A DNA stretch of 64,000 bases, taken from Proteobacteria bacterium UBA6503 (GTDB lineage Bacteria; Pseudomonadota; Alphaproteobacteria; UBA1280; UBA6503). The position numbers were made by a program, and so were the translations under genes. Below the pieces are notes generated by a model. It worked only from the letters and a program-made list of their open reading frames with translations, was not told the origin of the DNA and ran no database searches. The stretch covers positions 265,743-329,742 of the forward strand of contig DJLZ01000005.1 in the NCBI GenBank assembly GCA_002436405.1, read 5' to 3'. Below are positions 452 through 16,185 of this stretch, in pieces (within the stretch, counting starts at the first letter, position 1; every line of letters begins with the position of its first letter).

Positions 452-1447
452 ATGACAAGCCAAGGTATCATGAAATTCATTATCATTTTTATGTTGGCTG
501 TTGCGGCCGTATGGGGTGGTTTTACTTACTGGATGCAATCACTTAAAGCTACAGGGCCATTGCAGTTCCCTGCGGTTATTGTTATTGAACCAGGCGAAAG
601 CACTCGCAGCATTGCTAAAGACTTGCATGACAATGGCGTGATTGAAAGCGAATTTGTTTTCCGTCTAGCGGCCCGCGCAAGCTTGGCTGACCGTATTGTA
701 AAAGCAGGCGAATACAGCTTTGAACCGGGTGTTTCAGTACGTGGGGTTCTTAAAAAAATTACAGGCGGTGACGTTGTTCAACGCAGTATTACAATCCCTG
801 AAGGTTTGACCTACCAACAAGTGCGCCAAGTGCTACTTGATGAAGAAGGTATGCGTGGCCCACCACTTGAGTTTGAAGAAGGCGCACTCCTGCCTGAAAC
901 TTACGACTACCGCTGGAATGATAAACGCACCGACATCATGCGCCGTATGGCTCGTGCGATGACTGAAACTGTGAACATCGCATGGGAAAACCGCATTGAA
1001 GGCCTACCGTTTGAATCACCACGTGATTTGCTAACGATTGCCTCAATTATTGAAAAAGAAACACGTGTTCCAGCTGAATACCCATTGGTTGCAAGTGTTT
1101 ACATTAACCGCCTAAACCGCGGCATGCGCCTGCAGTCAGATCCTACAGTTATTTACGGTGCTTCAAACTACACGGGCGACATTACCTACGCCCACCTTAA
1201 AGAAGACCACCCGTACAACACTTACGTTCATAAAGGCCTACCGCCAAGCCCAATCGCAAACCCTGGCCGTGGTGCGATTATGGCTGCAGCAGCACCAGCA
1301 GATACTGATTACCTATATATGGTTGCTGATGGTTTTGGTGGGCATGTTTTCTCAAAAACTTATGCAGAACACAAAATTCATGTGGCAGCTATGCTTGCCC
1401 GTCAGAAAGAATTGCAAAAAGAACTAAGAACCGAAGGGAACAACTAA
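452..1447 (+). CDS. mltG: Endolytic murein transglycosylase MltG (YceG family)
   Basis: 331 aa with an N-terminal TM helix followed by a YceG-like domain. It sits immediately after fabF as in other proteobacteria. Confidence 0.8.
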   Translation: MTSQGIMKFIIIFMLAVAAVWGGFTYWMQSLKATGPLQFPAVIVIEPGESTRSIAKDLHDNGVIESEFVFRLAARASLADRIVKAGEYSFEPGVSVRGVLKKITGGDVVQRSITIPEGLTYQQVRQVLLDEEGMRGPPLEFEEGALLPETYDYRWNDKRTDIMRRMARAMTETVNIAWENRIEGLPFESPRDLLTIASIIEKETRVPAEYPLVASVYINRLNRGMRLQSDPTVIYGASNYTGDITYAHLKEDHPYNTYVHKGLPPSPIANPGRGAIMAAAAPADTDYLYMVADGFGGHVFSKTYAEHKIHVAAMLARQKELQKELRTEGNN

Positions 1448-2121
1448 TGGAAAAGAGAGACCTACACCAACGCGGTATGATGCTTGTAATTTCAGGCCCA
1501 TCTGGCTGCGGTAAAGATACAGTTGCTGACCTTCTTGGCAAAGATGAGCCTTTTATTGAGCGCACAATTACCACAACAAGCCGCTCGATGCGCCCAGGCG
1601 AGCAAGACGGTGTGGACTACAACTACGTGACCCGTGAAGAGTTTGAAGACCAAATCACTGAAGGTCACTTCCTTGAGTACAACGAATTTGTGGGTAACTA
1701 CTACGGTGTACCTCGTGGCCCAGTTGAAAAGAAATTGTCTGAAGGTAAAGATGTTATCTTCGTTATCGACTGGAACGGCGCACGTAAACTGCGTATGGCG
1801 ATGCCAGAAGATGTTGTAAGTGTATTCCTTCTACCGCCATCACTTGATGATCTGCGTGAGCGTTTGGTTTCTCGTGGTCGTGATGCGCAAGACGATATCG
1901 AAAACCGTATTAAACAAGGCAAGATTGATATTACCCACTACGACGAGTATGACTTTGTTGTTGTGAACGACGATCTTGATAGTGTGCTGCGTCGCTTTAA
2001 GCGTATTCTGCGTGCTGAGCGTCTTAAGCGCTACCGCCAGCCTTGGCTGAAAGACCTTGTGCAAGATATTCTGAAAGGCCATAAGCCTTCGCCAGAAATT
2101 ATGAAGGCCGCCTCAGAGTAG
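1447..2121 (+). CDS. gmk: Guanylate kinase
   Basis: P-loop GPSGCGKDT and guanylate kinase core motifs. The start overlaps the mltG stop (ATGA), suggesting coupling. Confidence 0.85.
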   Translation: MEKRDLHQRGMMLVISGPSGCGKDTVADLLGKDEPFIERTITTTSRSMRPGEQDGVDYNYVTREEFEDQITEGHFLEYNEFVGNYYGVPRGPVEKKLSEGKDVIFVIDWNGARKLRMAMPEDVVSVFLLPPSLDDLRERLVSRGRDAQDDIENRIKQGKIDITHYDEYDFVVVNDDLDSVLRRFKRILRAERLKRYRQPWLKDLVQDILKGHKPSPEIMKAASE

Positions 2122-2143
2122 TTTTTATAATAATCGCATTAAA

Positions 2144-2172
2144 AAACGCCCCAGCAAAACTGGGGCGTTTGT
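2144..2172. terminator. Rho-independent terminator between convergent gmk (+) and the EEP-family gene (-)
   Basis: GC stem acgcccca...tggggcgt followed by a T-rich tail. Confidence 0.5.
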
Positions 2173-2187
2173 CGTTAAAAAGGACCG

Positions 2188-3126
2188 TTAAAAGCTAAAG
2201 CTTACCTGATAACCATAATGGTCAGTGTCAGGCGCGCGCAAAGCACTGGCTTTATGCACAGTTGCCTTTTGGGGCAACAGCACAAAGTCAAACGGTGCTA
2301 CGGGCAGCAGCTTAAGGCGTACGCCCAAAAGGCGGAACTCAGCCGGCAAGGTTGCTTTGGGCAACGATGCGAGCTTCAAACCTTGAGCTTTGCTCACTTT
2401 GCGCACATGAACATCCCACGGCACGTTGTTAAAGTCGCCGCCAACCACAATGGGGTAGGGCGTCTTCACATCGCAAATCAGGTCCGTAATCGCATTGCGC
2501 TTATCGGTCCGTTGCGGCGTAAACGGCGCATGAGGGTGCAAGTGAACAAAATGGAAGGTACCATTCGGGTGGTAAACCTCGTAGTGCACCATGCGCCCAT
2601 TGGCATCAGTCTTCACGTGCTTTAGCGGCACTTTTGACAATATAGCCATGCTATAACCCAACACACTGTCGGTAATGCGAACCACATATTGGTGCGGGTA
2701 CATACTTTTCAGCTGTGCAAAGGCCTTGCGCATTTTGTTGTTCACTTCACAAAGGGCGAGAACATCGGCCTTTTGCTTTTTCAGAAAATTCACCTGTGCG
2801 GTCACGTCTTTATTGTAGGTATAGACGTTCAGCAACAGCATATTGATGTTTGGCTTGTTGTTGGGGTTTCCTTTGGGCTTTTCAGCATTCACGAAAACCT
2901 TAAAAGCAGGCCAATGTTTTGCCAAGGGGGCAAGTTTACGGCGCCATTTGGGCTGATGGATACCAGCTTTATAGAGGCACATAAACAAAATACCACGCCA
3001 CGGCGTCATAAGGGCGATTGCGGTGAACAGCAGTAGCCAATAGGGCGAACCTGGCAGCGAGAGCACAAGGCCCAGCAACCAGATAACTGCGCAAACCAAC
3101 GACACACCCAAGCGGATGTAGTGCAT
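2188..3126 (-). CDS. Endonuclease/exonuclease/phosphatase (EEP) family protein with N-terminal TM helices
   Basis: 312 aa with a hydrophobic N-terminus. The C-terminal half has an EEP-like pattern (GGDFN, histidine-rich catalytic region). Confidence 0.5.
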   Translation of the reverse strand: MHYIRLGVSLVCAVIWLLGLVLSLPGSPYWLLLFTAIALMTPWRGILFMCLYKAGIHQPKWRRKLAPLAKHWPAFKVFVNAEKPKGNPNNKPNINMLLLNVYTYNKDVTAQVNFLKKQKADVLALCEVNNKMRKAFAQLKSMYPHQYVVRITDSVLGYSMAILSKVPLKHVKTDANGRMVHYEVYHPNGTFHFVHLHPHAPFTPQRTDKRNAITDLICDVKTPYPIVVGGDFNNVPWDVHVRKVSKAQGLKLASLPKATLPAEFRLLGVRLKLLPVAPFDFVLLPQKATVHKASALRAPDTDHYGYQVSFSF

Positions 3127-3369
3127 AGTTTCACCTTAGGTTAGAGGGAAAGAAAGAAAAGGATATAAGATAGTTGCTTTAAGCCTGAGGATACCTGAAT
3201 CCATGTTAAAGCCCAAGCCTAATCCCGAACATAAATAAAAAATCTTTTAGAATCACGAGCTTGTAAATACAAAGAAAATTAAAAAAAATGCAAAAAAATC
3301 AATTTTTTCCTTTGAAGTAGCGTAAAAACTACCTATCTTTAAAAGTACGAGAAATCTTTTCCGTAACAT

Positions 3370-3417
3370 CTTACTTTCTTTTTCCCTTTTCTTTTTTTTC
3401 CTCCAAGGAGAATACCT
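3370..3417 (+). promoter_or_regulatory. Polypyrimidine (CT-rich) 5' leader with AAGGAG RBS in front of the ClpP-fold gene
   Basis: The sequence cttactttctttttcccttttcttttttttcctccAAGGAG lies 7 nt upstream of the ATG at 3418. A near-identical architecture recurs at 4717-4773. Confidence 0.4.
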
Positions 3418-4524
3418 ATGTTTACTGATAACCTCCCGCAGCCGACGACGCTGGAAGAGGCCGAGAAGGCATTCACCGATGCGGTGAACGCTTACCACAT
3501 CACCATTCCCGATGATTCGCATGGTGGCCGTGGCTTCGCTCTTCCCTCGATCATGTTCAAGCACCGCATCCTGTACCTGCACGGTCCTGTTACCCAGGAA
3601 GCCGTTCAGGCGCTCTGCATGCAGCTGCACTACCTGTGCAGTGAACCGGTGCTCAAGCAGCCGAACCGTTCGCGTCGCATCACGCTGTACGTGAACAGCC
3701 CTGGTGGTCTGGTGGGTGAGGGTCTGACCCTTTTCTACTACCTCCGTCAGGCGGAAGAAATCACCCGTGAACCGGTCGCCACCGTCATCCAGACGATGGG
3801 CGCCTCCATGGGTTCGTTCCTCCCGCAGGCGGCTACGCCTGGTTACCGGCTGATGATGCCGTATTCGCAGATGATGATTCACTCGCTCTCGTACGGTGTA
3901 CAGGGCAAGCGTGAAGATCACACTCGTAGTGTGGGCCAGACCCGCAATATGATGGCTGCGATGTACGAAGTCTACGTCGACAAGATGGCTGAAGCGCGCG
4001 TGCTCTTCGGCGGCAAGGAAGACACCCCGGAACTCCGTGGTGAAATCCTTCGCTGGCTGTTCGAGCAGATGGAAGACGACGATGTTTTCATGTCGCCTCT
4101 CCAGACGCTCGATGCCGATCTGACCGACTTCGTCGTGCACTCCGAGGCCGAGCAGTTCGAGTACTACAAGGCACTCGACTGGTACCACGGTCTGTACAAG
4201 GAAGGCCCGAATCCGGAAGAACCCGGCAAGACGACCCTGATTCGTGCGGAAGCCGATCAGCAGTCTGGCCGTGTGACGCCGTTCGAGCTCAGCGATGCTG
4301 AGAAGGCCCGTGCCCTCGCCGAGATCAAGCGCTTGCGCAAGATCAACCGTGAGAAGACGGTCGCTTTCGAAGGTCGCCGTGCACCGATCGAAGCTGCTCT
4401 GGCTGCTCTCGATACGGTTCGTATCCAGGAAGGCACCGGCACCCGTAAGGGTAACGGTCCGGCCTATGATACGGCTATCGAAGCGTTCGAAGCCGCTCTG
4501 AAGGGTTCGTCCAAGAAGAGCTAA
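3418..4524 (+). CDS. ClpP-fold (S14-like) serine peptidase with about 170-aa C-terminal coiled/acidic extension; compositionally foreign
   Basis: The ClpP core is recognisable: LYVNSPGG..GL (compare INSPGG), a GASMGSF serine motif, and a MMIHSLS histidine motif. The CDS is GC-rich with CTG/CCG/CGT/ACC/ATC-biased codons, unlike the flanking genes. Confidence 0.6.
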   Translation: MFTDNLPQPTTLEEAEKAFTDAVNAYHITIPDDSHGGRGFALPSIMFKHRILYLHGPVTQEAVQALCMQLHYLCSEPVLKQPNRSRRITLYVNSPGGLVGEGLTLFYYLRQAEEITREPVATVIQTMGASMGSFLPQAATPGYRLMMPYSQMMIHSLSYGVQGKREDHTRSVGQTRNMMAAMYEVYVDKMAEARVLFGGKEDTPELRGEILRWLFEQMEDDDVFMSPLQTLDADLTDFVVHSEAEQFEYYKALDWYHGLYKEGPNPEEPGKTTLIRAEADQQSGRVTPFELSDAEKARALAEIKRLRKINREKTVAFEGRRAPIEAALAALDTVRIQEGTGTRKGNGPAYDTAIEAFEAALKGSSKKS

Positions 4525-4538
4525 TAGCGAAAACGGAA

Positions 4539-4569
4539 AGCCGCCCCATTAGGGGCGGCTTTCTTTTTG
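4539..4569 (+). terminator. Rho-independent terminator after the ClpP-fold gene
   Basis: agccgcccc-atta-ggggcggct followed by ttctttttg. Confidence 0.6.
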
Positions 4570-4716
4570 CCTAAATAGGGGGGATTTAAAGGGCTTAACC
4601 TAGTGCGGCATATGCATGGATTTTCGGAATAAATATCGAATTTAATTAAAGTTTTAGCCCAAAAAGGCTTGGTCAATTGGCTTGATTTGGGGTAATGTGT
4701 ATACCAATTGTGTAGA

Positions 4717-4773
4717 TTTTCTTCTTTTTCTTTTTTTCTTTCCTCTTTTTACTTACATGCCTAGGAGTTTCTT
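4717..4773 (+). promoter_or_regulatory. Second polypyrimidine leader with TAGGAG RBS in front of the acidic/vWA gene
   Basis: ttttcttctttttctttttttctttcctctttttacttacatgccTAGGAG, then ATG at 4774. Confidence 0.4.
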
Positions 4774-6564
4774 ATGGCAAATCCCAATCAAGAGGCACTG
4801 AACCAGGTGCGTGCGCTTTTGCGTGCGTATGTTCGGTTTGGCGCCAGTATCATGGTCGACACCGAAGGTGTCGTTCCTGCTGAACTGTACCTTGTGTTGC
4901 AGCAGGTCCTGGGTATCGAACCCGGCCAGCCGCTTCCCAAGGAAATCATGGACGTGCTTCATGCACACGCCAAGTCGCTTGCTCAAGTTGAGTCAAGCCT
5001 TTCCGAAATGGAACGCAAAGAGCTTGAAGCTTTCTGGAACCGCCTGAAGGCGGCCAAAAACCAGAAGCAGCTCGAAGCCGCCGAAGATACGAAAGCCGAT
5101 ATGAGCCCCAATGCTCAGAAGGCTGTCGATCTGCAGCGTCGTCTGCGCCAGAGCATTGCAACGCAATTGCTTGATGCGTGGAAGGCGAAGAATGATCCTG
5201 AAGAGTCCGAAGAGGACCAGCAGGACGAAGGCGGTGATGACGATCAGCACTCCGATGCTCAGGACATGGACGAACCCTCTGAAGACGAAGCCGACGGCCA
5301 AGATGGCGAAGGCGACGACGAAGGGGACGACAAGTCTGACGGCTCCGGCGGCGGCGAAGGTGATGACGATGGCGAAAGCGATGGTCAGGGCCAGGACGGC
5401 GACGGTGAAGGTGAACCTGGCGAAGGTCAGGGGCAACCCGGAGATGGCAAAGGCCAGCCCAGCGATGGGAAGGGTCAGCCTGGTGATGGCAAAGGCGAAC
5501 CTGGCGAAGGCCAAGGTGAAGCCGGCAAGGGTGAAGGTCAGGGGCAGCCCTCCGATGGTGAATACCAGGAGAGCAACGCTGCCGAAGACAAACAGCCCGG
5601 CCATGACGAATGGATGGAACAGCTCCAGAAGGAGCTGGAAGAGCAGGCGCAAGCCGAAGCTGAAGCCGAGGCTGAAGCCGAAGGTGAAGGCGACGGTGAC
5701 GGCGAAGGCGATGGTGAAGGCGATGGTAAGGGTGAAACCGATACCACCGACCCCAACCGTAGCAAGGATGTTGAAGGTGTCTTTGACCTTTCGAACCTTG
5801 TGCCCGACCCGGCAGACGTCAACGCTGCAAAGCAGGCTCTGTCTCGGATGATTGCAAAGGGTCTCGATAACCCCACGCAGCTTCCGCGCTGGAAACTTGG
5901 CGAGTTCGTCAAGCGCCAGACCACGCTTCGTAACCTGAAGGGTGCAAAAAAGCCTACGCTGGAACGGAAAGCGGTGATGTTCATCATCGATAACTCGCCC
6001 AGTATGGCTCACTTGCAGGCTCAGTCGCGCGCCCTTGCGGCCGCACTGTCCGCCACCGGTGGTCCCGCAGGGGCCGACGTTGTGGTTGCCCTCAGCTTTA
6101 ACGGTCACTACAGCGACTCCAAGCCCCTGACTGAGAAAAATCAGGATGGTGCGTGGTTCCTTAACGGGAAGCTGATGGGGCAGTTGCCGAAGCCCAGTAA
6201 GTCCAGCGGTGTTGATGAAAAACACCATGGTAACTGCTGGAAGTGGTTCATCCAAAAAGTCTTGCCCAAGTACAAGGTGAATGTCCATCTGATCGGCATT
6301 TACGGCGACTACGACGGGACCAAGGAATGGTGCTACATCTCGAACGAGATGAAAGGCATTCAGACCCTCTGGTTTAACCCGGAAAACAAGGAGCTGGAAG
6401 GCGTTCTCGAACGCAAAAACCCCAACTTCTCTGAACGTTTGGGTTCCAGCTACGGTTACGTCAAAGGTGACCGTCGCTTTGAGCTTTTCCGAGGCACGTT
6501 CTTCACGCAAGTGGATACTGTCCAGGATATTGCCCAGGCCCTTCGTAAGGTCGCAGGCGTATAA
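4774..6564 (+). CDS. Large acidic low-complexity protein with C-terminal vWA-like domain; compositionally foreign
   Basis: 596 aa. The N-terminus is helical, residues about 140-330 are D/E/G-rich heptad-like repeats (DGKGQPG units, EAEAEA, GDGEGD), and the C-terminal block VMFIIDNSPSM (DxSxS MIDAS-like) ... VVVALSF ... VHLIGIYGD fits a vWA fold. GC and codon usage match the upstream ClpP-fold gene. Confidence 0.5.
   Translation: MANPNQEALNQVRALLRAYVRFGASIMVDTEGVVPAELYLVLQQVLGIEPGQPLPKEIMDVLHAHAKSLAQVESSLSEMERKELEAFWNRLKAAKNQKQLEAAEDTKADMSPNAQKAVDLQRRLRQSIATQLLDAWKAKNDPEESEEDQQDEGGDDDQHSDAQDMDEPSEDEADGQDGEGDDEGDDKSDGSGGGEGDDDGESDGQGQDGDGEGEPGEGQGQPGDGKGQPSDGKGQPGDGKGEPGEGQGEAGKGEGQGQPSDGEYQESNAAEDKQPGHDEWMEQLQKELEEQAQAEAEAEAEAEGEGDGDGEGDGEGDGKGETDTTDPNRSKDVEGVFDLSNLVPDPADVNAAKQALSRMIAKGLDNPTQLPRWKLGEFVKRQTTLRNLKGAKKPTLERKAVMFIIDNSPSMAHLQAQSRALAAALSATGGPAGADVVVALSFNGHYSDSKPLTEKNQDGAWFLNGKLMGQLPKPSKSSGVDEKHHGNCWKWFIQKVLPKYKVNVHLIGIYGDYDGTKEWCYISNEMKGIQTLWFNPENKELEGVLERKNPNFSERLGSSYGYVKGDRRFELFRGTFFTQVDTVQDIAQALRKVAGV
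5408..5563 (+). repeat. Imperfect 21-bp tandem repeats encoding DGKGQPG-type heptads
   Basis: cagcccagcgatgggaagggt / cagcctggtgatggcaaaggc / gaacctggcgaaggccaaggt and related units in tandem. Confidence 0.6.
5653..5736 (+). repeat. 6-bp tandem repeats (gccgaa/gctgaa then ggYgaM) encoding (EA)n and (GD/GE)n
   Basis: Direct reading of the sequence. Confidence 0.6.
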
Positions 6565-6579
6565 ACCATTAACGACTAA

Positions 6580-6607
6580 GGCCCCCAGCAATGGGGGCCT
6601 TTTTTTG
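6580..6607 (+). terminator. Rho-independent terminator after the acidic/vWA gene
   Basis: ggccccc-agcaat-gggggcc followed by tttttttg. Confidence 0.6.
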
Positions 6608-6943: not shown

Positions 6944-9646
6944 ATGTCTAACTGGCTTCGGGTGCCAACCTTACAAGATCCTCGTCCGTATGCTGCATCC
7001 TTGCAGCTTTCTTTCCTTGTGATTGGCATGTACCTATTAGGCTTTAACCGCACATGGGGGCAGGTGCTGTTTATTGTGGGTGCTTGTATTGTGCTCGACT
7101 TTATTCTGCACTTTGTGATTCACCGTAAGCTGCTCTTTCCGTTTAGTGCGCTGCAAACAGGTTTGTCGCTCGCTATTCTAACCAGCTTTGGTTTGGGCTT
7201 ATGGTTGGCGCTGGTGCCTGTGTTTTTATCAATCCTTTCAAAGTATGTGGTCACCTACAAAGGTCGCCATATTTTTAACCCGTCACTGTTTGGTCTTGCC
7301 GCTACCATTTACTTTATGGGCGACCTTATTGCCGTAAGCCCTGCAAAGCAGTGGGATGGCAGCGTAGGGGTGCTAGTTTATATTTTGGCGGGCGCCATTA
7401 TTTTTGTAATGCCTAAGATTAAACGTACGGCGCTTGTGTTGTCGCTATTGGGATTCTTTGGGTTGCAGGTATTGGCCCGTGCATACTGGCTTACGCCTGA
7501 AATTCCGTTAGAGACGATCTTTTACGGCTTGTTCTTCTCGCCAGCGTTTTACTTGTTTGTGTTCTTCTTTTTGACTGACCCTGCCACAACGCCGAATGAC
7601 CCTAAAAAACAAGTGGCCATGACGGCGGCCATTGTTTTGATTGATACGCTATTCCATGCGTTTCAAATTCTATCGAGTGTATTTTACGCGGGCTTTATTT
7701 ACTTTGCGCTTCGTTGGTTATGGCTTGTGGCAAACGACGCCCTGAAAGAGCCTGATCTTAAACACCGCCTTAAACGCCTTGCCTTACCAGTGGCTGGGCC
7801 TGTTGTGGCCATGGCTGTGCTTGTAGGCTTAAGCTACGGGGTGCATGAGGCTGCAAAGGCGCACCTGCCAACCGTACAGGCTAACTTTAAGCTAGAACGC
7901 ATGTATGTAGGCATTGAGGGCCGTAAGGGCGACACCCTTGATCAGATTGACCCCCGTGCAAAACACATTGCTAAATGGCTGCTGGCTGCGGGCGAGGGTG
8001 TCAATGTTGTGGATGTAAACAACGATGGCCTGCTGGATGTATTCTTGACCCAAACGCAAAAGCGTGGGGCTGACCGTGTGCAGCTTTATATTGCTAAGGC
8101 CCCATTTGTGTATGAGCAGTTTGCTTTACCTCAGTTGCAGCGCTACCGTGAAAATGAAAAACAAAACGGAGTGCCTGCCGGTGCTATGTTCTTTGATGCA
8201 GATAACGACGGCGATAAAGACCTGCTGATTCTTGCCCTTTCGGGTAAGCCAATGTTTTTGCAAAATATGCTCACTGAAACGGGTGAGCTTGGCTTTACCG
8301 AAGCACCACTACCTGGTGATGCCGCAGGCCATCAAAATGCCGTTGCCGTTACTGCGGCTGACTTTGATAACAACGGCTACCTAGATGTGGTGTGGAGTAA
8401 TTACTTCCCTAAATACCATGAGGCTTACCCTGGCGCGCAGCGCTTACTGAATATCTTTAACCTACCTGAAGCTGAATATGAGGGCGATAACCGCCCACAG
8501 CATATTTTGTACAACAGCTGGGCTAATGCCACTAACGGTGGCCTAAGCCGTTATATGGCAGGTGGTGCAGGCGGCTTTGAAGATGTGGGCGACCCTTTTA
8601 ACCGCACCACTTGGACGCTAGCACTTGGTGCAGCTGACCTTAACAACGATGGCCTGCAAGATATTTACTTTGCCAATGATAACGGCCCAGACGACATGTT
8701 TATGCAAAAAGCCAGCGGTAAGTTTATCCGCCTTATTGGCCTTAACCGTAGCGGTGTGGGTCGTGATACTTATAAAGGGATGAATGTCTCGTTTGCGGAT
8801 TTTGATAAAAACGGCATGCCCGATATTTATGTTTCAAACATGCATGAACCTACACTTGTTGAAGGCAGCATGCTGTGGCTGAATAATACAAAAGAGGGCG
8901 AGTTTAACGGCAATGCCTTTACAAACTCAGCCAGTTCAAAAGGAACTTGGAACGAAAAGCGCTTTGGTTGGGGCGCTGGCGTGGGGGATTTAAACCTAGA
9001 TGGCCAACCTGATATTGTGCAAGCGAACGGCATGATTGATACAAACTATGACTCACCACTACTGTGCACCAGCTATTGGTATGCCTCAGGCCTACTTACG
9101 GGTGCCGTATCACAAGTATTACCGTATGCCGATAAATGGCCGTCAATGGTGGATAAATGCATGTTTGCCGGTGAAAAGAACCGTGTATACCTTAACGAAG
9201 GTGGTTACTTTGCTGATGTTGCAGATGAAGTAGGTTTTGCAACGCCTAATACAGCACGTGCCATTGCCTTAGCTGACCTTGATAACGATGGCGACCTTGA
9301 CGTTATTGTAGCGCATCCAACAGCTGCCCCAAGCTTTTATAAAAACACCCGTAATGAACCCATGGGGGATTGGCTTGGCGTAAAGCTTGTGGGTAATGGC
9401 CAAACCTGTAACAGCGATGCTGTGGGTACACGTGTGCACCTAACCTATGGCGGTGCAGACCCTGTAACGCTTGAACAGCGTGTATATGCTACGCAAGGAA
9501 TGTCAGCCCAAGGCGACCAGCGCCTACTGTTTGGCCTAAATGGCTACAGCGGCATGGTGAAGCTAAAAGTTGATTGGTGCGGGCAGGGGGCTGATGTAAC
9601 AACGGCCCAAGTTGCCTCGGGCCGTTATACAACTTTAAAGCAGTAG
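6944..9646 (+). CDS. Polytopic membrane protein fused to FG-GAP/VCBS-like Ca-binding repeats and ASPIC/UnbV-like C-terminus (CRTAC1 family-like)
   Basis: 900 aa. The N-terminal roughly 300 aa carry several predicted TM helices. Repeated Dx[ND]xDGxxD motifs follow (VNNDGLLDV, DADNDGDKDL, DFDNNGYLDV, DLNNDGLQDI, DFDKNGMPDI, DLNLDGQPDI, DLDNDGDLDV). The C-terminus has the VGTRVHLTYGG ... Q tail typical of ASPIC/UnbV. Confidence 0.6.
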   Translation: MSNWLRVPTLQDPRPYAASLQLSFLVIGMYLLGFNRTWGQVLFIVGACIVLDFILHFVIHRKLLFPFSALQTGLSLAILTSFGLGLWLALVPVFLSILSKYVVTYKGRHIFNPSLFGLAATIYFMGDLIAVSPAKQWDGSVGVLVYILAGAIIFVMPKIKRTALVLSLLGFFGLQVLARAYWLTPEIPLETIFYGLFFSPAFYLFVFFFLTDPATTPNDPKKQVAMTAAIVLIDTLFHAFQILSSVFYAGFIYFALRWLWLVANDALKEPDLKHRLKRLALPVAGPVVAMAVLVGLSYGVHEAAKAHLPTVQANFKLERMYVGIEGRKGDTLDQIDPRAKHIAKWLLAAGEGVNVVDVNNDGLLDVFLTQTQKRGADRVQLYIAKAPFVYEQFALPQLQRYRENEKQNGVPAGAMFFDADNDGDKDLLILALSGKPMFLQNMLTETGELGFTEAPLPGDAAGHQNAVAVTAADFDNNGYLDVVWSNYFPKYHEAYPGAQRLLNIFNLPEAEYEGDNRPQHILYNSWANATNGGLSRYMAGGAGGFEDVGDPFNRTTWTLALGAADLNNDGLQDIYFANDNGPDDMFMQKASGKFIRLIGLNRSGVGRDTYKGMNVSFADFDKNGMPDIYVSNMHEPTLVEGSMLWLNNTKEGEFNGNAFTNSASSKGTWNEKRFGWGAGVGDLNLDGQPDIVQANGMIDTNYDSPLLCTSYWYASGLLTGAVSQVLPYADKWPSMVDKCMFAGEKNRVYLNEGGYFADVADEVGFATPNTARAIALADLDNDGDLDVIVAHPTAAPSFYKNTRNEPMGDWLGVKLVGNGQTCNSDAVGTRVHLTYGGADPVTLEQRVYATQGMSAQGDQRLLFGLNGYSGMVKLKVDWCGQGADVTTAQVASGRYTTLKQ

Positions 9647-10309
9647 TTATTTCTTCAAGAAAAAGCGTGCAAGCAGCACAAATACCATCGTAATAACCAG
9701 TACAGGAAGCATGTGGAAAATAGCCACGTGCTCTGGCGTGTCGAGGTAGCAGAAGTATGAAGTAAATACAAAAGAAAGTGCTGTTGAAGCTAAAGCCGCT
9801 GAAAGGCCAATAACGTATGGGCGCACCGGAAAACTATCATGCAGCATCACAAACATAAGGACGGTCATTGCTGAAGCGGATGCCGTGAGCACGCTAGCAC
9901 AACCAACGTGGCCTGAGTATGCCTCTTTTAGAAGGGCTTCGGCCGAAATATCGTACACTGTGTAGCCAAGTGAAATAAACCAAAACACAAGTGCGCCGTA
10001 GCACATGGCTGCCCAAATACGGTGTTTTGCTGGGCTATCAGGGATACCCAGTTTAAAGCCACTATAGGCACATACAGCAGACATAAAGAGCAATACTACT
10101 GACTTTACAAGGAACACACCTTCGTAAAGTTTATTGTCTTCAGGGCGCACCCCAAGCAGTAGGATAATAAGGCTAATCAGAATAACTGAGGCGACAAACC
10201 AAATAGCCATGTTTTTACAAGGGCGCTTGCACTTTACAGGCTTAAGGCCATCGCACATAGCTGCGATGATAGAATCAGTCTTTTGTTGCTTTGTATCGTG
10301 TTTCGTCAT
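9647..10309 (-). CDS. nrsF: DUF1109-family membrane anti-sigma factor (NrsF-like)
   Basis: 220 aa. The N-terminal TDSIIAAMCDGLKPV is followed by six hydrophobic segments. It lies immediately downstream of, and is translationally coupled to, the ECF sigma gene, with a 1-nt gap. Confidence 0.6.
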   Translation of the reverse strand: MTKHDTKQQKTDSIIAAMCDGLKPVKCKRPCKNMAIWFVASVILISLIILLLGVRPEDNKLYEGVFLVKSVVLLFMSAVCAYSGFKLGIPDSPAKHRIWAAMCYGALVFWFISLGYTVYDISAEALLKEAYSGHVGCASVLTASASAMTVLMFVMLHDSFPVRPYVIGLSAALASTALSFVFTSYFCYLDTPEHVAIFHMLPVLVITMVFVLLARFFLKK

Positions 10310-10310
10310 G

Positions 10311-10859
10311 TTATTGGCGTTCCAAAAATGTCTTCAACGTTTTATAGGCGCGGTGCGCAGCTACTTTAACTGTGGTTGGTTTCATACCCATCACTTTGCC
10401 AGCTTCGTCCGCTGTTAAACCATGTAGCTTCATCAGAATAACAGCCTGGCGAGGCTTTTCAGGAAGCTGCGCAAGAGCATTCATAAGGTCGTGCCTATCA
10501 AGCGCTTGCATTTGTTTATTCGCATCGTCTTGGAAAAAGGTTTCAATGTCTTCACCGGTTGAAAGCTCATCTTCTTTATTGCGGCCAACCTTACGGAAGG
10601 CATCAATGGTCTTATAGCGAATAATCGCATTAAACCAAGGCATGAAGGGCTTTGATGAATCATAGGTATGGCGGGCGTTGTGAATCCCGAAAAGAACTTC
10701 CTGAACGATATCTTCTACCAAAGCAGGGTCGTACACTTTGCTTCGTACAAACTTGGTAGCAACAAGGCGCATTTCGTTTAGCAGCTTATTATAAGCGGTG
10801 CTATTACCGTTTTGCGCTTTGACCATAAGGTCCTGCCATTGGTCAGTATTGGTGGCCAT
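10311..10859 (-). CDS. sigF: ECF-type RNA polymerase sigma-70 factor (SigF-like)
   Basis: 182 aa with sigma-70 region 2 (VQEVLFGIHNARHTYD) and region 4 (LTADEAGKVMGMKPTTVKVAAHRA). Confidence 0.75.
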   Translation of the reverse strand: MATNTDQWQDLMVKAQNGNSTAYNKLLNEMRLVATKFVRSKVYDPALVEDIVQEVLFGIHNARHTYDSSKPFMPWFNAIIRYKTIDAFRKVGRNKEDELSTGEDIETFFQDDANKQMQALDRHDLMNALAQLPEKPRQAVILMKLHGLTADEAGKVMGMKPTTVKVAAHRAYKTLKTFLERQ

Positions 10860-13882: not shown

Positions 13883-14290
13883 TTACTGCGAAGTTGTACC
13901 CACTGGGCAATCAGCAGCGGTACGGCTAATACCATCATCACCACGGATAACGCTAATACGGTCAACCTCGGTGCCATTGCTATAAAGCACAAGGGTTGTT
14001 GGGTTATTGGTGTTCGGCAGCCACTCGTGTGTAATACCAGCAAGGTCAACACAGTTGGTGCCGTCAAAGGTTTGGCCGTTTGCATTGCAGCTTTCTAGGC
14101 GACCTGCAAAGTTATCAAGGTCGTCAAGGCGGTCATCAATACGCACAAGCTCGTCCAGGCAGGCAGACTCTTGCGCTGCGTTTGAGCTCATACCACGGGC
14201 TGATTTGTTTTGTGCAACGGCTGTGCTTACGCTCAATGTCGCAAGTAGCAGGCCCAAGCATGTGTATTTAAAAGTGTTTTTCATCATCAT
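13883..14290 (-). CDS. Small secreted protein, MMMK-paralog 2 (unknown function)
   Basis: 135 aa with a signal peptide ending AVAQ and 4 Cys. It is paralogous to the upstream 142-aa gene. It starts ATGATGATG, preceded by GGGG. Confidence 0.5.
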   Translation of the reverse strand: MMMKNTFKYTCLGLLLATLSVSTAVAQNKSARGMSSNAAQESACLDELVRIDDRLDDLDNFAGRLESCNANGQTFDGTNCVDLAGITHEWLPNTNNPTTLVLYSNGTEVDRISVIRGDDGISRTAADCPVGTTSQ

Positions 14291-14298
14291 CCCCTAAA

Positions 14299-14727
14299 TT
14301 ATCCACCAAATGGCACAACGTTAACAGCGCCGTTTTCACCATCTAGGTTGTAGTAGCGTGCGTTTGAAGGGCCCGAGTCACCCATGTAGTTGCCGTTGGT
14401 ATCCTGAATGTACAGGCGCTTTTGCGTACCTGTATCTTCAAAGCGGATATCCACTGGCAGCAAACCGTTGGTGCAACTGCCGTCTTCTTCAGAAAGTTGG
14501 CCGGTTGCAGCACAGGCTTCAATTTGCGTAGTGATATCTGTGATGCGGGTCACCGTTAGGCCAAGGTCACGCACTTGTGGTGCCGCAACCGAAATAGCAT
14601 CGCTACCGGCGTTCACCCCGCGGCCCGATACAGTCTGAGCCATAGCAGAATTTGGAACCAGAGCAGGGGCCACGCCAACCGCTAATGCGGTGATTGTGAA
14701 AAGTGATTTATATAGTTTCATCATCAT
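14299..14727 (-). CDS. Small secreted protein, MMMK-paralog 1 (unknown function)
   Basis: 142 aa with a signal peptide ending AMAQ. It shares the C-x(3)-TGQ/NGQ ... DG-x-C core with paralog 2. It starts 6 nt after the stop of the 483-aa gene. Confidence 0.5.
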   Translation of the reverse strand: MMMKLYKSLFTITALAVGVAPALVPNSAMAQTVSGRGVNAGSDAISVAAPQVRDLGLTVTRITDITTQIEACAATGQLSEEDGSCTNGLLPVDIRFEDTGTQKRLYIQDTNGNYMGDSGPSNARYYNLDGENGAVNVVPFGG

Positions 14728-14733
14728 TACCCC

Positions 14734-16185
14734 TTACTGCTCACAGTATACTTTTACACTACCGCCACCCCATAGCAGCTTCTTATCTTGTGCGGCAGGG
14801 TCTGGTGTTATGTCTTCACAGCCAACTGAGGTGTGGTTCATCACACGTTCGATACGCTTGTTCGTCGGGAACATGTCTTTGTAAACAGTGCTCGCTACGT
14901 TCAGTTTATTAATGTCAGCACCACCAGCACCACCACTACTTACAGTAGGGTTGGTATCCGTCTTCCAACCACGTGGGTAGCTAGAGGCTGGCAAACACTG
15001 GTTACCGATAATGGCAGGGCCTTTAATATCGATAAACTTACCGCCTGCAAAGTTCTTCTTCTTGAAGATTTCAAGGCGTGTTTTAGGGCCAATGGCAATA
15101 AAGTCAAAGGTACCTGAGTTCGCCTTAGCAAACGGGACGGTTGCGTCAGGGTATGCGCCTGCACCAACGTGGTTACCTACAGAGTCACCACTCCAGCCCA
15201 CACTAGCGTAAGGCGGTGTTAGACCACTTACGTAGAAGAAACACTGCGAGGTAGGCGGTTGCGGCGTTGTTGGCAAGTCAGTCTCACAGCTTTCATACTG
15301 GAACGAGCCACTTAGGCTACCGTTTGTACAAACACGGTTTTCTGAGTTACAGCTACCACCAGCGCTTACACGCTCTACTTCATAGGCGGTAACACTGCCA
15401 CCATGAGGAACAGTTTCACCATTAAAGGTACATGGGTCTTCATCACCACATGTTGCAAACGCATATGTGCCGCTTAGGCTACCGTTGTTACATGTACGTG
15501 TCTGAGAACTACATGACTGGCCAGCACCTGGGTTGTCGGTTAGGTAAGCTGTTACGCTTTCACCATCCGCCAAAGTTTGGCCATCAAAGGTACAGTCGTT
15601 TGTATCGTTGCATGAGTCAAAGGCAAAAGAACCAGTAAAGGTACCGTTGTTACAGGTACGTGTTTCACGGTTGGTTGAGCTTTCACAGCTGCGGCCACCC
15701 AAAACAACGTCTTCACGGTAGGCCACAACACGGTCACCATGGTCGTATGAAGTTCCGTTGAATGTACAACCTACAGGGTCTTCCATACAGGTTACATTTG
15801 AACCGCGACGACCACCAACGCGAACAGCGGTACCGTTTGTACCGTTAGGGTTAACCAATGTCAGTGTGTCGCCAGAGTTATCATCAGCAAAAATGTGTTC
15901 TGGTGAAAGGGTTGGGCTCACACAAGCGCCTGAGCCTGGGTCGTACAATTGGCCTTGGTCATTACAGCGAAGCACACGGTTAATGCGCTGCTGAATAGTT
16001 AATGCACGCTCTTGTGAGCGTAGGGCGCCATCCTGACAGCGGTTAATACCGTTTTGGCTAGAGTTCTGAATCACACCTTTTGAACTAAAGATTTGAGCTT
16101 GCGCATCAGGAGCAACAAACACGACAAAAGCAAGCAACACGCTTGCCAGTGTATAAAACAAAGATTTCTTATTCTTATTCCCCAA
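14734..16185 (-). CDS. Secreted 483-aa protein with three tandem roughly 50-aa 4-Cys repeats and a C-terminal beta-rich domain (unknown function)
   Basis: Signal peptide AFVVFVAPDAQAQ. Repeats at aa 140-192, 198-246 and 252-300 follow CTF[ND]G-x(4,5)-[HD]G-x-[RS]V-x-AY ... GG-x-SC ... R-x-C-[NT]NG-[TS][FL][ST]G-[ST][FY]-x-[FY]-x-[ST]C. It is first in a coupled three-gene operon. Confidence 0.5.
   Translation of the reverse strand: MGNKNKKSLFYTLASVLLAFVVFVAPDAQAQIFSSKGVIQNSSQNGINRCQDGALRSQERALTIQQRINRVLRCNDQGQLYDPGSGACVSPTLSPEHIFADDNSGDTLTLVNPNGTNGTAVRVGGRRGSNVTCMEDPVGCTFNGTSYDHGDRVVAYREDVVLGGRSCESSTNRETRTCNNGTFTGSFAFDSCNDTNDCTFDGQTLADGESVTAYLTDNPGAGQSCSSQTRTCNNGSLSGTYAFATCGDEDPCTFNGETVPHGGSVTAYEVERVSAGGSCNSENRVCTNGSLSGSFQYESCETDLPTTPQPPTSQCFFYVSGLTPPYASVGWSGDSVGNHVGAGAYPDATVPFAKANSGTFDFIAIGPKTRLEIFKKKNFAGGKFIDIKGPAIIGNQCLPASSYPRGWKTDTNPTVSSGGAGGADINKLNVASTVYKDMFPTNKRIERVMNHTSVGCEDITPDPAAQDKKLLWGGGSVKVYCEQ
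15286..15768 (-). repeat. Three tandem in-frame coding repeats (about 150 nt each) inside the 483-aa secreted protein
   Basis: Protein-level repeats CTFNGTSYDHGDRVVAYRED... / CTFDGQTLADGESVTAYLTD... / CTFNGETVPHGGSVTAYEVE... Confidence 0.6.

Follow-up and report, generated by a model that had tools for sequence, protein, structure and literature searches.

The gene at 14734..16185 (minus strand) of a 64,000-nucleotide stretch of Proteobacteria bacterium UBA6503 (contig DJLZ01000005.1, positions 265,743 to 329,742 of the forward strand; from here on, the window) encodes an exported protein of 483 amino acids (aa) that contains three tandem repeats of approximately 50 residues, each with four Cys residues. 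We confirmed these three repeats, which are encoded by nucleotides 15286..15768 on the minus strand and cover aa 140-300. Judging from sequence comparisons, they are copies of a bacterial domain family that has no entry in the libraries searched. From the N terminus, the protein consists of a signal peptide, an N-terminal module (N-module), the three 4-Cys repeats, a Pro/Thr linker, and a C-terminal 4-Cys domain. The assignment of the gene, including its TTG start codon, is based on the list of open reading frames (ORFs), the translation, and the Cys positions.

The three repeats are genuine and diverged copies of one unit

Repeat 1 (CTFNGTSYDHGDRVVAYREDVVLGGRSCESSTNRETRTCNNGTFTGSFAFDSC; aa 140-192, 53 aa, 15610..15768), repeat 2 (CTFDGQTLADGESVTAYLTDNPGAGQSCSSQTRTCNNGSLSGTYAFATC; aa 198-246, 49 aa, 15448..15594), and repeat 3 (CTFNGETVPHGGSVTAYEVERVSAGGSCNSENRVCTNGSLSGSFQYESC; aa 252-300, 49 aa, 15286..15432) are all encoded on the minus strand and are joined by acidic linkers of 5 aa. 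In BLASTP comparisons of repeat against repeat, they were 45-51% identical, with E values of 1e-16 to 3e-20. The four Cys residues are in register across the three copies, and the alignment is unambiguous; its sole gap is caused by an insertion of 4 aa between Cys2 and Cys3 of repeat 1, and the ortholog alignment shows that this insertion is kept in the orthologs. A previous sequence-only reading of the window had described three tandem 4-Cys units with the motifs CTF[ND]G, [HD]G, V-x-AY, R-x-C-[NT]NG, and [ST][FL][ST]G, and we found all these motifs.

The tandem units and their periodicity were supported statistically by a hidden Markov model (HMM) built independently of the window protein. 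This HMM was made from 138 repeats of other, unrelated proteins, leaving out the window protein and its orthologs, and it detected all three window repeats, with scores of 52.1, 72.1, and 74.6 bits for repeats 1, 2, and 3, respectively (i-E values of 3e-15 to 3e-22). When the 483-aa protein was shuffled 1000 times, the top score against the same HMM was 7.6 bits. The alternative that the periodicity arises from chance or low complexity, or that the ORF is spurious, is refuted by these scores (52 to 75 bits versus at most 7.6 bits), by the existence of syntenic orthologs with 48-67% identity, and by family members that number in the thousands, and we give it essentially no credence. Conversely, we regard it as practically certain that the repeats truly belong to a real family.

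The coding DNA of the three copies is diverged, with a mean column identity of 74%, and Tandem Repeats Finder detected nothing in it. These two observations show that the duplication is old and not an artefact of assembly. The 4-Cys unit was seen in no other ORF of the window.

The repeat belongs to a large family found mainly in Bdellovibrionota

A word-indexed search with the whole protein gave 276 matches. When 1.84 billion cluster representatives were searched exhaustively with a profile, 3371 proteins were found at an E value of ≤1e-3, 2183 at ≤1e-10, and 821 at ≤1e-30. The statistics on single units given below were drawn from 120 listed matches of the 276 in the whole-protein search. 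The non-orthologous matches are proteins of 350-840 aa in which the similarity is confined to the repeat; they have 5-12 copies with a strict period of 56 aa, corresponding to a 49-aa unit and a 7-aa linker. The usual array contains 2-15 copies, and one protein of 2688 aa has 42-43, so that copy number, the variation of which the sequence-only reading had proposed to check, ranges from 2 to approximately 43 among homologs.

The unit is highly uniform: of 841 full-length units, 743 have a length of exactly 49 aa, and 830 contain exactly four Cys residues. The linker between units has a length of 7 aa at 651 of approximately 720 junctions, versus 5 aa in the window protein. The consensus of the 841 units is CLFNGQTIAHGQSVTAYQNSSVPYGQTCQSETRTCNNGVLSGSYTYASC, which can be written as CxFNGxTIxHGxSVxAYxxSxVxxGxxCxSExRxCxNGxLSGSYxxxSC. 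Across the 743 units of 49 aa, C1, C28, C35, and C49 are invariant, while R33, G38, and G42 are conserved in ≥98%; besides the Cys residues, the near-invariant positions are G5, G11, G25, R33, G38, L40, and G42. Almost invariant polar positions are R33 (98%), E/Q31 (97%), N/D37 (94%), and H10 (62%). The window repeats fit the Cys/Gly pattern with the exceptions of A at position 25 in repeat 2 and F at position 40 in repeat 1, and the latter residue occurs at this position in 4% of the 743 units. With its tandem layout and short linkers in a signal-bearing protein, the window protein follows the family pattern.

A contig scan using the whole 483-aa protein found no relative, and the distribution over contigs was obtained by a scan with the consensus repeat. 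Based on protein names and genome titles, the majority of members are from Bdellovibrio, Pseudobdellovibrio, and other Bdellovibrionota. Isolated members are present in Polyangiaceae, an Acidovorax chromosome, SAR324, and an alphaproteobacterial metagenome-assembled genome (MAG). A few are found in MAGs labelled as candidate phyla radiation (CPR) or DPANN, for which mis-binning is possible.

The repeat matches no named domain family

The sequence-only reading had not recognized the unit as EGF, Kazal, TSP1, or another named Cys-rich module, and scans of Pfam and NCBIfam agreed with this; an assignment to a known Pfam domain did not occur. Specifically, Pfam-A (2025 copy) and NCBIfam 20.0 gave no match to the 483-aa protein, and no match to either was obtained with the parts of the protein and its orthologs at E values of ≤10. 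Among the multi-copy relatives, there was no Pfam or NCBIfam model that covers the repeat. When 142 single repeats were scanned at E values of ≤10, no family matched more than three members; fn1, VWC, EGF, and TSP1 were absent, while Kazal_2 (E value of 0.078) and Sushi_2 appeared once each. Most of the 120 listed multi-repeat proteins also had no precomputed annotation from a newer Pfam release. PF26745, which is among the precomputed annotations of six relatives, was considered as a candidate for the repeat and rejected, as it corresponds to a distinct domain of approximately 195 aa at the C terminus. A profile search of PDB sequences with the repeat gave 0 matches at E values of ≤10, and a literature search found no description of a 49-aa 4-Cys module and no mention of PF26745.

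The repeat is predicted to form a compact all-beta module

We modelled repeat 3 using AlphaFold2 (AF2) and an alignment of 142 diverse units. The resulting model (m927f0a8ca508) is compact and all-beta with four main strands and was predicted with high confidence (predicted local distance difference test [pLDDT] score of 97.1). The suggestion in the sequence-only reading of a small disulfide-stabilized extracellular module is supported by this compact predicted fold together with the Sec-type signal peptide and the even number of Cys residues. Presumably, two disulfides, with a Cys pairing that we infer, pin each module. Foldseek searches gave nothing significant against the PDB, in which the best match was the sushi-like domain V of beta2-glycoprotein I (E value of 0.85), and nothing significant against viral models.

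The predicted fold appears to be nearest to modules of the fibronectin type I (FnI), complement control protein (CCP), and von Willebrand factor type C (VWC) types, at non-significant scores with which membership is not demonstrable. That the module is a very divergent homolog of these eukaryotic modules, by shared ancestry or by horizontal transfer, is improbable and found no support. Examples of FnI (fn1, PF00039) are factor XII FnI (4bdx), fibronectin 8-9FnI (3ejh), and the tPA finger (1tpn). The repeat resembles FnI neither in sequence nor in profile, and no match to the fn1 HMM was found among the 142 repeats at E values of ≤10. Cys2 and Cys3 are separated by 6 residues in the repeat (10 in repeat 1), whereas FnI has C-x-C; the Trp and Tyr signature of FnI is missing from the repeat, which has 49 aa with an extra loop; and the repeat is bacterial and found mostly in lipoproteins. 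We also aligned nine human fibronectin FnI modules, which were checked residue by residue against PDB chains. Against this set, hhalign gave a probability of 0.8% over 10 columns, and homology to FnI was rejected at the profile level. Compared with CCP/sushi modules (factor H and beta2-glycoprotein I), the repeat has no Sushi HMM match and lacks the conserved CCP Trp before Cys4. Compared with VWC subdomains (CCN3, VWF C4, and NEL), it has no VWC HMM match. The scores for both the CCP/sushi and the VWC modules are below usual significance.

The repeat array as a candidate stalk

In the usual layout of family members, an N-terminal signal is followed by the repeat array and a variable tail. A lipobox-like motif, QNC, is present within the first 70 aa of 122 of 238 members. 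We note that F-Q-N-C lies at the end of the signal peptide in approximately half of the repeat proteins and looks like a Bdellovibrionota variant of the lipobox with Asn at −1. Among the tails, we found BNR/sortilin propellers, PG_binding_1, and PF26745-type domains, as well as PA-IIL, F5/8C, and PKD domains in the precomputed annotations. In P0009, P0052, P0053, P0060, P0082, P0093, and P0131, a conserved C-terminal domain of approximately 195 aa (GSPLMVHFNSD...DLNADPNY...KSVVKTKDG) is located behind the array; this domain corresponds to PF26745, and P0131 was included on a BLASTP match of the tail only.

In bacterial repeat stalks of adhesins and lipoproteins, such as those of the Big, PKD, and CFSR types, nearly identical modules in varying number lie between a signal for export, or an anchor, and a functional head. 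The family follows the same plan, with a signal, an array of variable length built from nearly identical modules, and a head. In contrast to their modules of 80-100 aa, which are Ig-like and usually without disulfides, the unit described here has half the size and is Cys pinned, and no Pfam repeat family matches it.

Based on this architecture, we lean toward the idea that the array is a stiff, protease-resistant stalk or spacer with a length that depends on copy number. It is favored by the uniform unit length, the fixed short linkers, and the range in copy number, as well as by orthologs that have gained or lost entire modules (see below) and by the fold class, as the nearest solved folds, FnI, CCP, and VWC, form elongated or rod-like strings in animal extracellular proteins. 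Such an array would keep a functional head at a distance from the site of anchoring, probably in the periplasm or at the cell surface. In the window protein, the three modules would link the N-module to a lineage-specific C-terminal domain of 170 aa via the Pro/Thr linker. The N-module, which is also encoded alone by two small downstream genes, may be a unit for assembly or anchoring, and the 483-aa protein may interact with these small paralogs.

Some observations weigh against a stalk. The three copies in the window protein would give only a short one. Modelling of the full-length protein with AF2 (10 sequences) gave a pLDDT score of 45.9, and this model was unusable and left out of the fold search. 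Moreover, the near-invariance of R33, E/Q31, N/D37, and H10 exceeds the needs of a pure spacer and could reflect a binding site. Along these lines, the modules themselves might bind and form a multivalent, adhesin- or lectin-like array, either by beta-strand addition as in FnI modules or through the conserved R/E/N/H positions. The near-invariant polar residues point in this direction, as do P0128, P0140, P0141, P0146, and P0206, which consist of nearly nothing but repeats and lack a tail of at least 80 aa. It also agrees with binding that the nearest folds, FnI and CCP, are eukaryotic binding modules and that it is predatory bacteria, with their need to recognize prey surfaces, in which the family is expanded. 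However, the repeats are highly uniform within arrays, most members carry diverse dedicated C-terminal domains, and E31, R33, and C35 alternate on one strand and may face the core as structural residues. Taking both sides into account, we view binding by the modules as possible but rather doubtful, and a stalk as the somewhat better explanation of the array.

Domains flanking the repeats in the 483-aa protein

In an exact-sequence look-up, the NCBI version of the protein is MBA43692.1, a "hypothetical protein" of 475 aa, and the window belongs to a mesopelagic MAG from Tara Oceans with the NCBI label "Magnetococcales bacterium." The 483-aa protein has 20 Cys residues, an even total, which are grouped as sets of four, and this fits an oxidizing compartment. 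Sequence inspection identified a Sec-type signal peptide at aa 1-30 (16096..16185, minus strand); by eye, its n-region is basic (KNKK), its core is hydrophobic, and its cleavage motif is A-Q-A (AQA/Q). The predicted mature end is an invariant Gln residue, at which the alignment of N-modules begins.

The N-module (aa 31-139, approximately 109 aa; 15769..16095, minus strand) has four Cys residues, and the alignment has invariant residues at Q1, S4, G7, C44, G48, Q49, C58, G95, and G98. The N-modules at 15769-16095, 14302-14637, and 13886-14212 (minus strand) share the invariant predicted mature N terminus Q-x-x-S-x-x-G, which is followed by a long helix and then by a C-x3-GQ-x(6-8)-C hairpin. 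The N-module has no Pfam match. A PDB profile search with it gave only weak, non-significant matches (E values of 0.07-0.11) to chains of a Sphingomonas "flagellin homolog" (2zbi and 3k8w); the helix-NGQ region resembles a flagellin D1 motif, again with a non-significant likeness.

The Pro/Thr-rich linker, as read from the sequence, is ETDLPTTPQPPTSQ (aa 301-314; 15244..15285, minus strand) and is kept as DLPxTPxPPT across the aligned orthologs. It leads to the C-terminal domain (aa 315-483, approximately 170 aa; 14737..15243, minus strand), which has four Cys residues and the motifs YVGAGAYPD, TFDxIAIGxxTRLVIYxxxxFxG, and WGGGSxKVxC. This domain has no Pfam match and 0 matches to PDB sequences in a profile search. 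It is confined to the lineage of the window and two remote relatives, in one of which it stands alone behind a lipoprotein signal (P0299) and in the other is fused to an OmpA peptidoglycan-binding domain (P0300). Its TRLVIYKxKNFKGG segment presumably resembles the Greek-key motif of beta/gamma-crystallins.

Orthologs differ in copy number and lie in a conserved three-gene cassette

We identified five collinear orthologs (P0001-P0004 and P0016), and overall the orthologs are 48-99% identical; a further ortholog is split into two halves, P0113 and P0121. The orthologs at the same site have three or two modules, while their N and C domains are otherwise collinear, and the alignment supports that repeat 2 is missing from the 2-repeat orthologs P0004, P0016, and P0113. 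In the closer orthologs P0002-P0004, repeats 2 and 3 (71-88% identity) are better conserved than the N-module and C-terminal domain (60-74%), while repeat 1 (58-72%) is comparable to those flanks. In P0016, identity is higher for the modules (55-67%) and the C-terminal domain (58%) than for the N-module (37%). This pattern of conservation also agrees with a stalk.

Downstream of the large gene, two genes on the minus strand encode small exported paralogs of the N-module. The first (142 aa; 14299..14727) follows after a gap of 6 bases (14728-14733) from the stop codon of the large gene, and the second (135 aa; 13883..14290) after a gap of 8 bases (14291-14298) from the 142-aa gene. BLASTP comparisons of the N-module with the paralogs gave E values of 2e-9 (135 aa) and 9e-5 (142 aa), to which the signal peptides contribute in part. 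The large gene and the two small genes form a cassette (13883-16185, minus strand), the order of which is kept in the loci L001, L002, and L003. The cassette is located between TolC and a LOG-family gene in the order PCMT, TolC, cassette, LOG, DUF2497, and ValRS, and in the diverged relative represented by L002 and L003, it is found at the equivalent site. A scan for promoters and terminators around the cassette gave no excess of sites over shuffled sequence.

The contig L001, with 99% identity to the window, has two tandem copies of the cassette (636-5238). The small genes are identical between the two copies, whereas one large gene encodes 483 aa and three repeats and the other 429 aa and two repeats. 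Contigs with the 429-aa-type large gene are very short, which fits assembly breaks at the duplication. In L002 and L003 (4826-6098), two overlapping ORFs of 271 aa (P0113) and 165 aa (P0121) take the place of a single large gene. Among five contigs found with this ORF, the distinct contigs L002 and L003 are from different sequencing runs, and both have the split. The split could be a frameshift or pseudogene, or it could reflect recoding.

Other features of the window

Elsewhere in the window, a gene at 4774-6564 (plus strand) encodes a protein of 596 aa with a long acidic, Asp/Glu/Gly-rich low-complexity region that contains GQPGDGK-type repeats. Its C terminus has the motif IIDNSPSM, which is a DxSxS pattern resembling VWA/MIDAS, and the protein has no Pfam match at E values of ≤1e-5. 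The GC content of this gene region is raised (0.56), and an antisense ORF of 532 aa (4993-6591) is probably spurious. The region at 6944-10859 includes the gene for a 900-aa FG-GAP/ASPIC-UnbV protein with an odd, weak N-terminal match to NQR2_RnfD_RnfE; this gene adjoins a pair encoding an ECF sigma factor and an NrsF anti-sigma factor, and the order is kept in L002.

Implications

With a confidence that falls a little short of even, we propose that the repeat founds an undescribed bacterial family: a 49-aa, two-disulfide beta module of FnI/CCP-like shape that would have arisen or been retained independently of the animal modules and would have undergone massive expansion in predatory Bdellovibrionota, forming the stalk on which lipoprotein heads sit, with these heads possibly acting in recognition of prey or the envelope. 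The window protein would then be a rare case in which this module was exported to a marine, Magnetococcales-labelled lineage and became part of a strain-variable three-gene cassette there. The architectural principle of a repeat stalk is familiar, and the family itself clearly qualifies as a candidate for its own domain entry. It comprises more than 3000 protein clusters and has a confident predicted structure, and it lacks a Pfam or NCBIfam model and a solved relative by sequence search. The family would also add a bacterial case of small, disulfide-pinned "beads on a string," which are best known from animal extracellular proteins.

For the bacterium of the window, an uncultured mesopelagic organism, the locus is a conserved and yet strain-variable cassette of three genes for exported proteins. 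The surface proteins by which predatory bacteria recognize prey are poorly understood, and defining the family would annotate thousands of "hypothetical" surface lipoproteins, in particular those of predatory bacteria.
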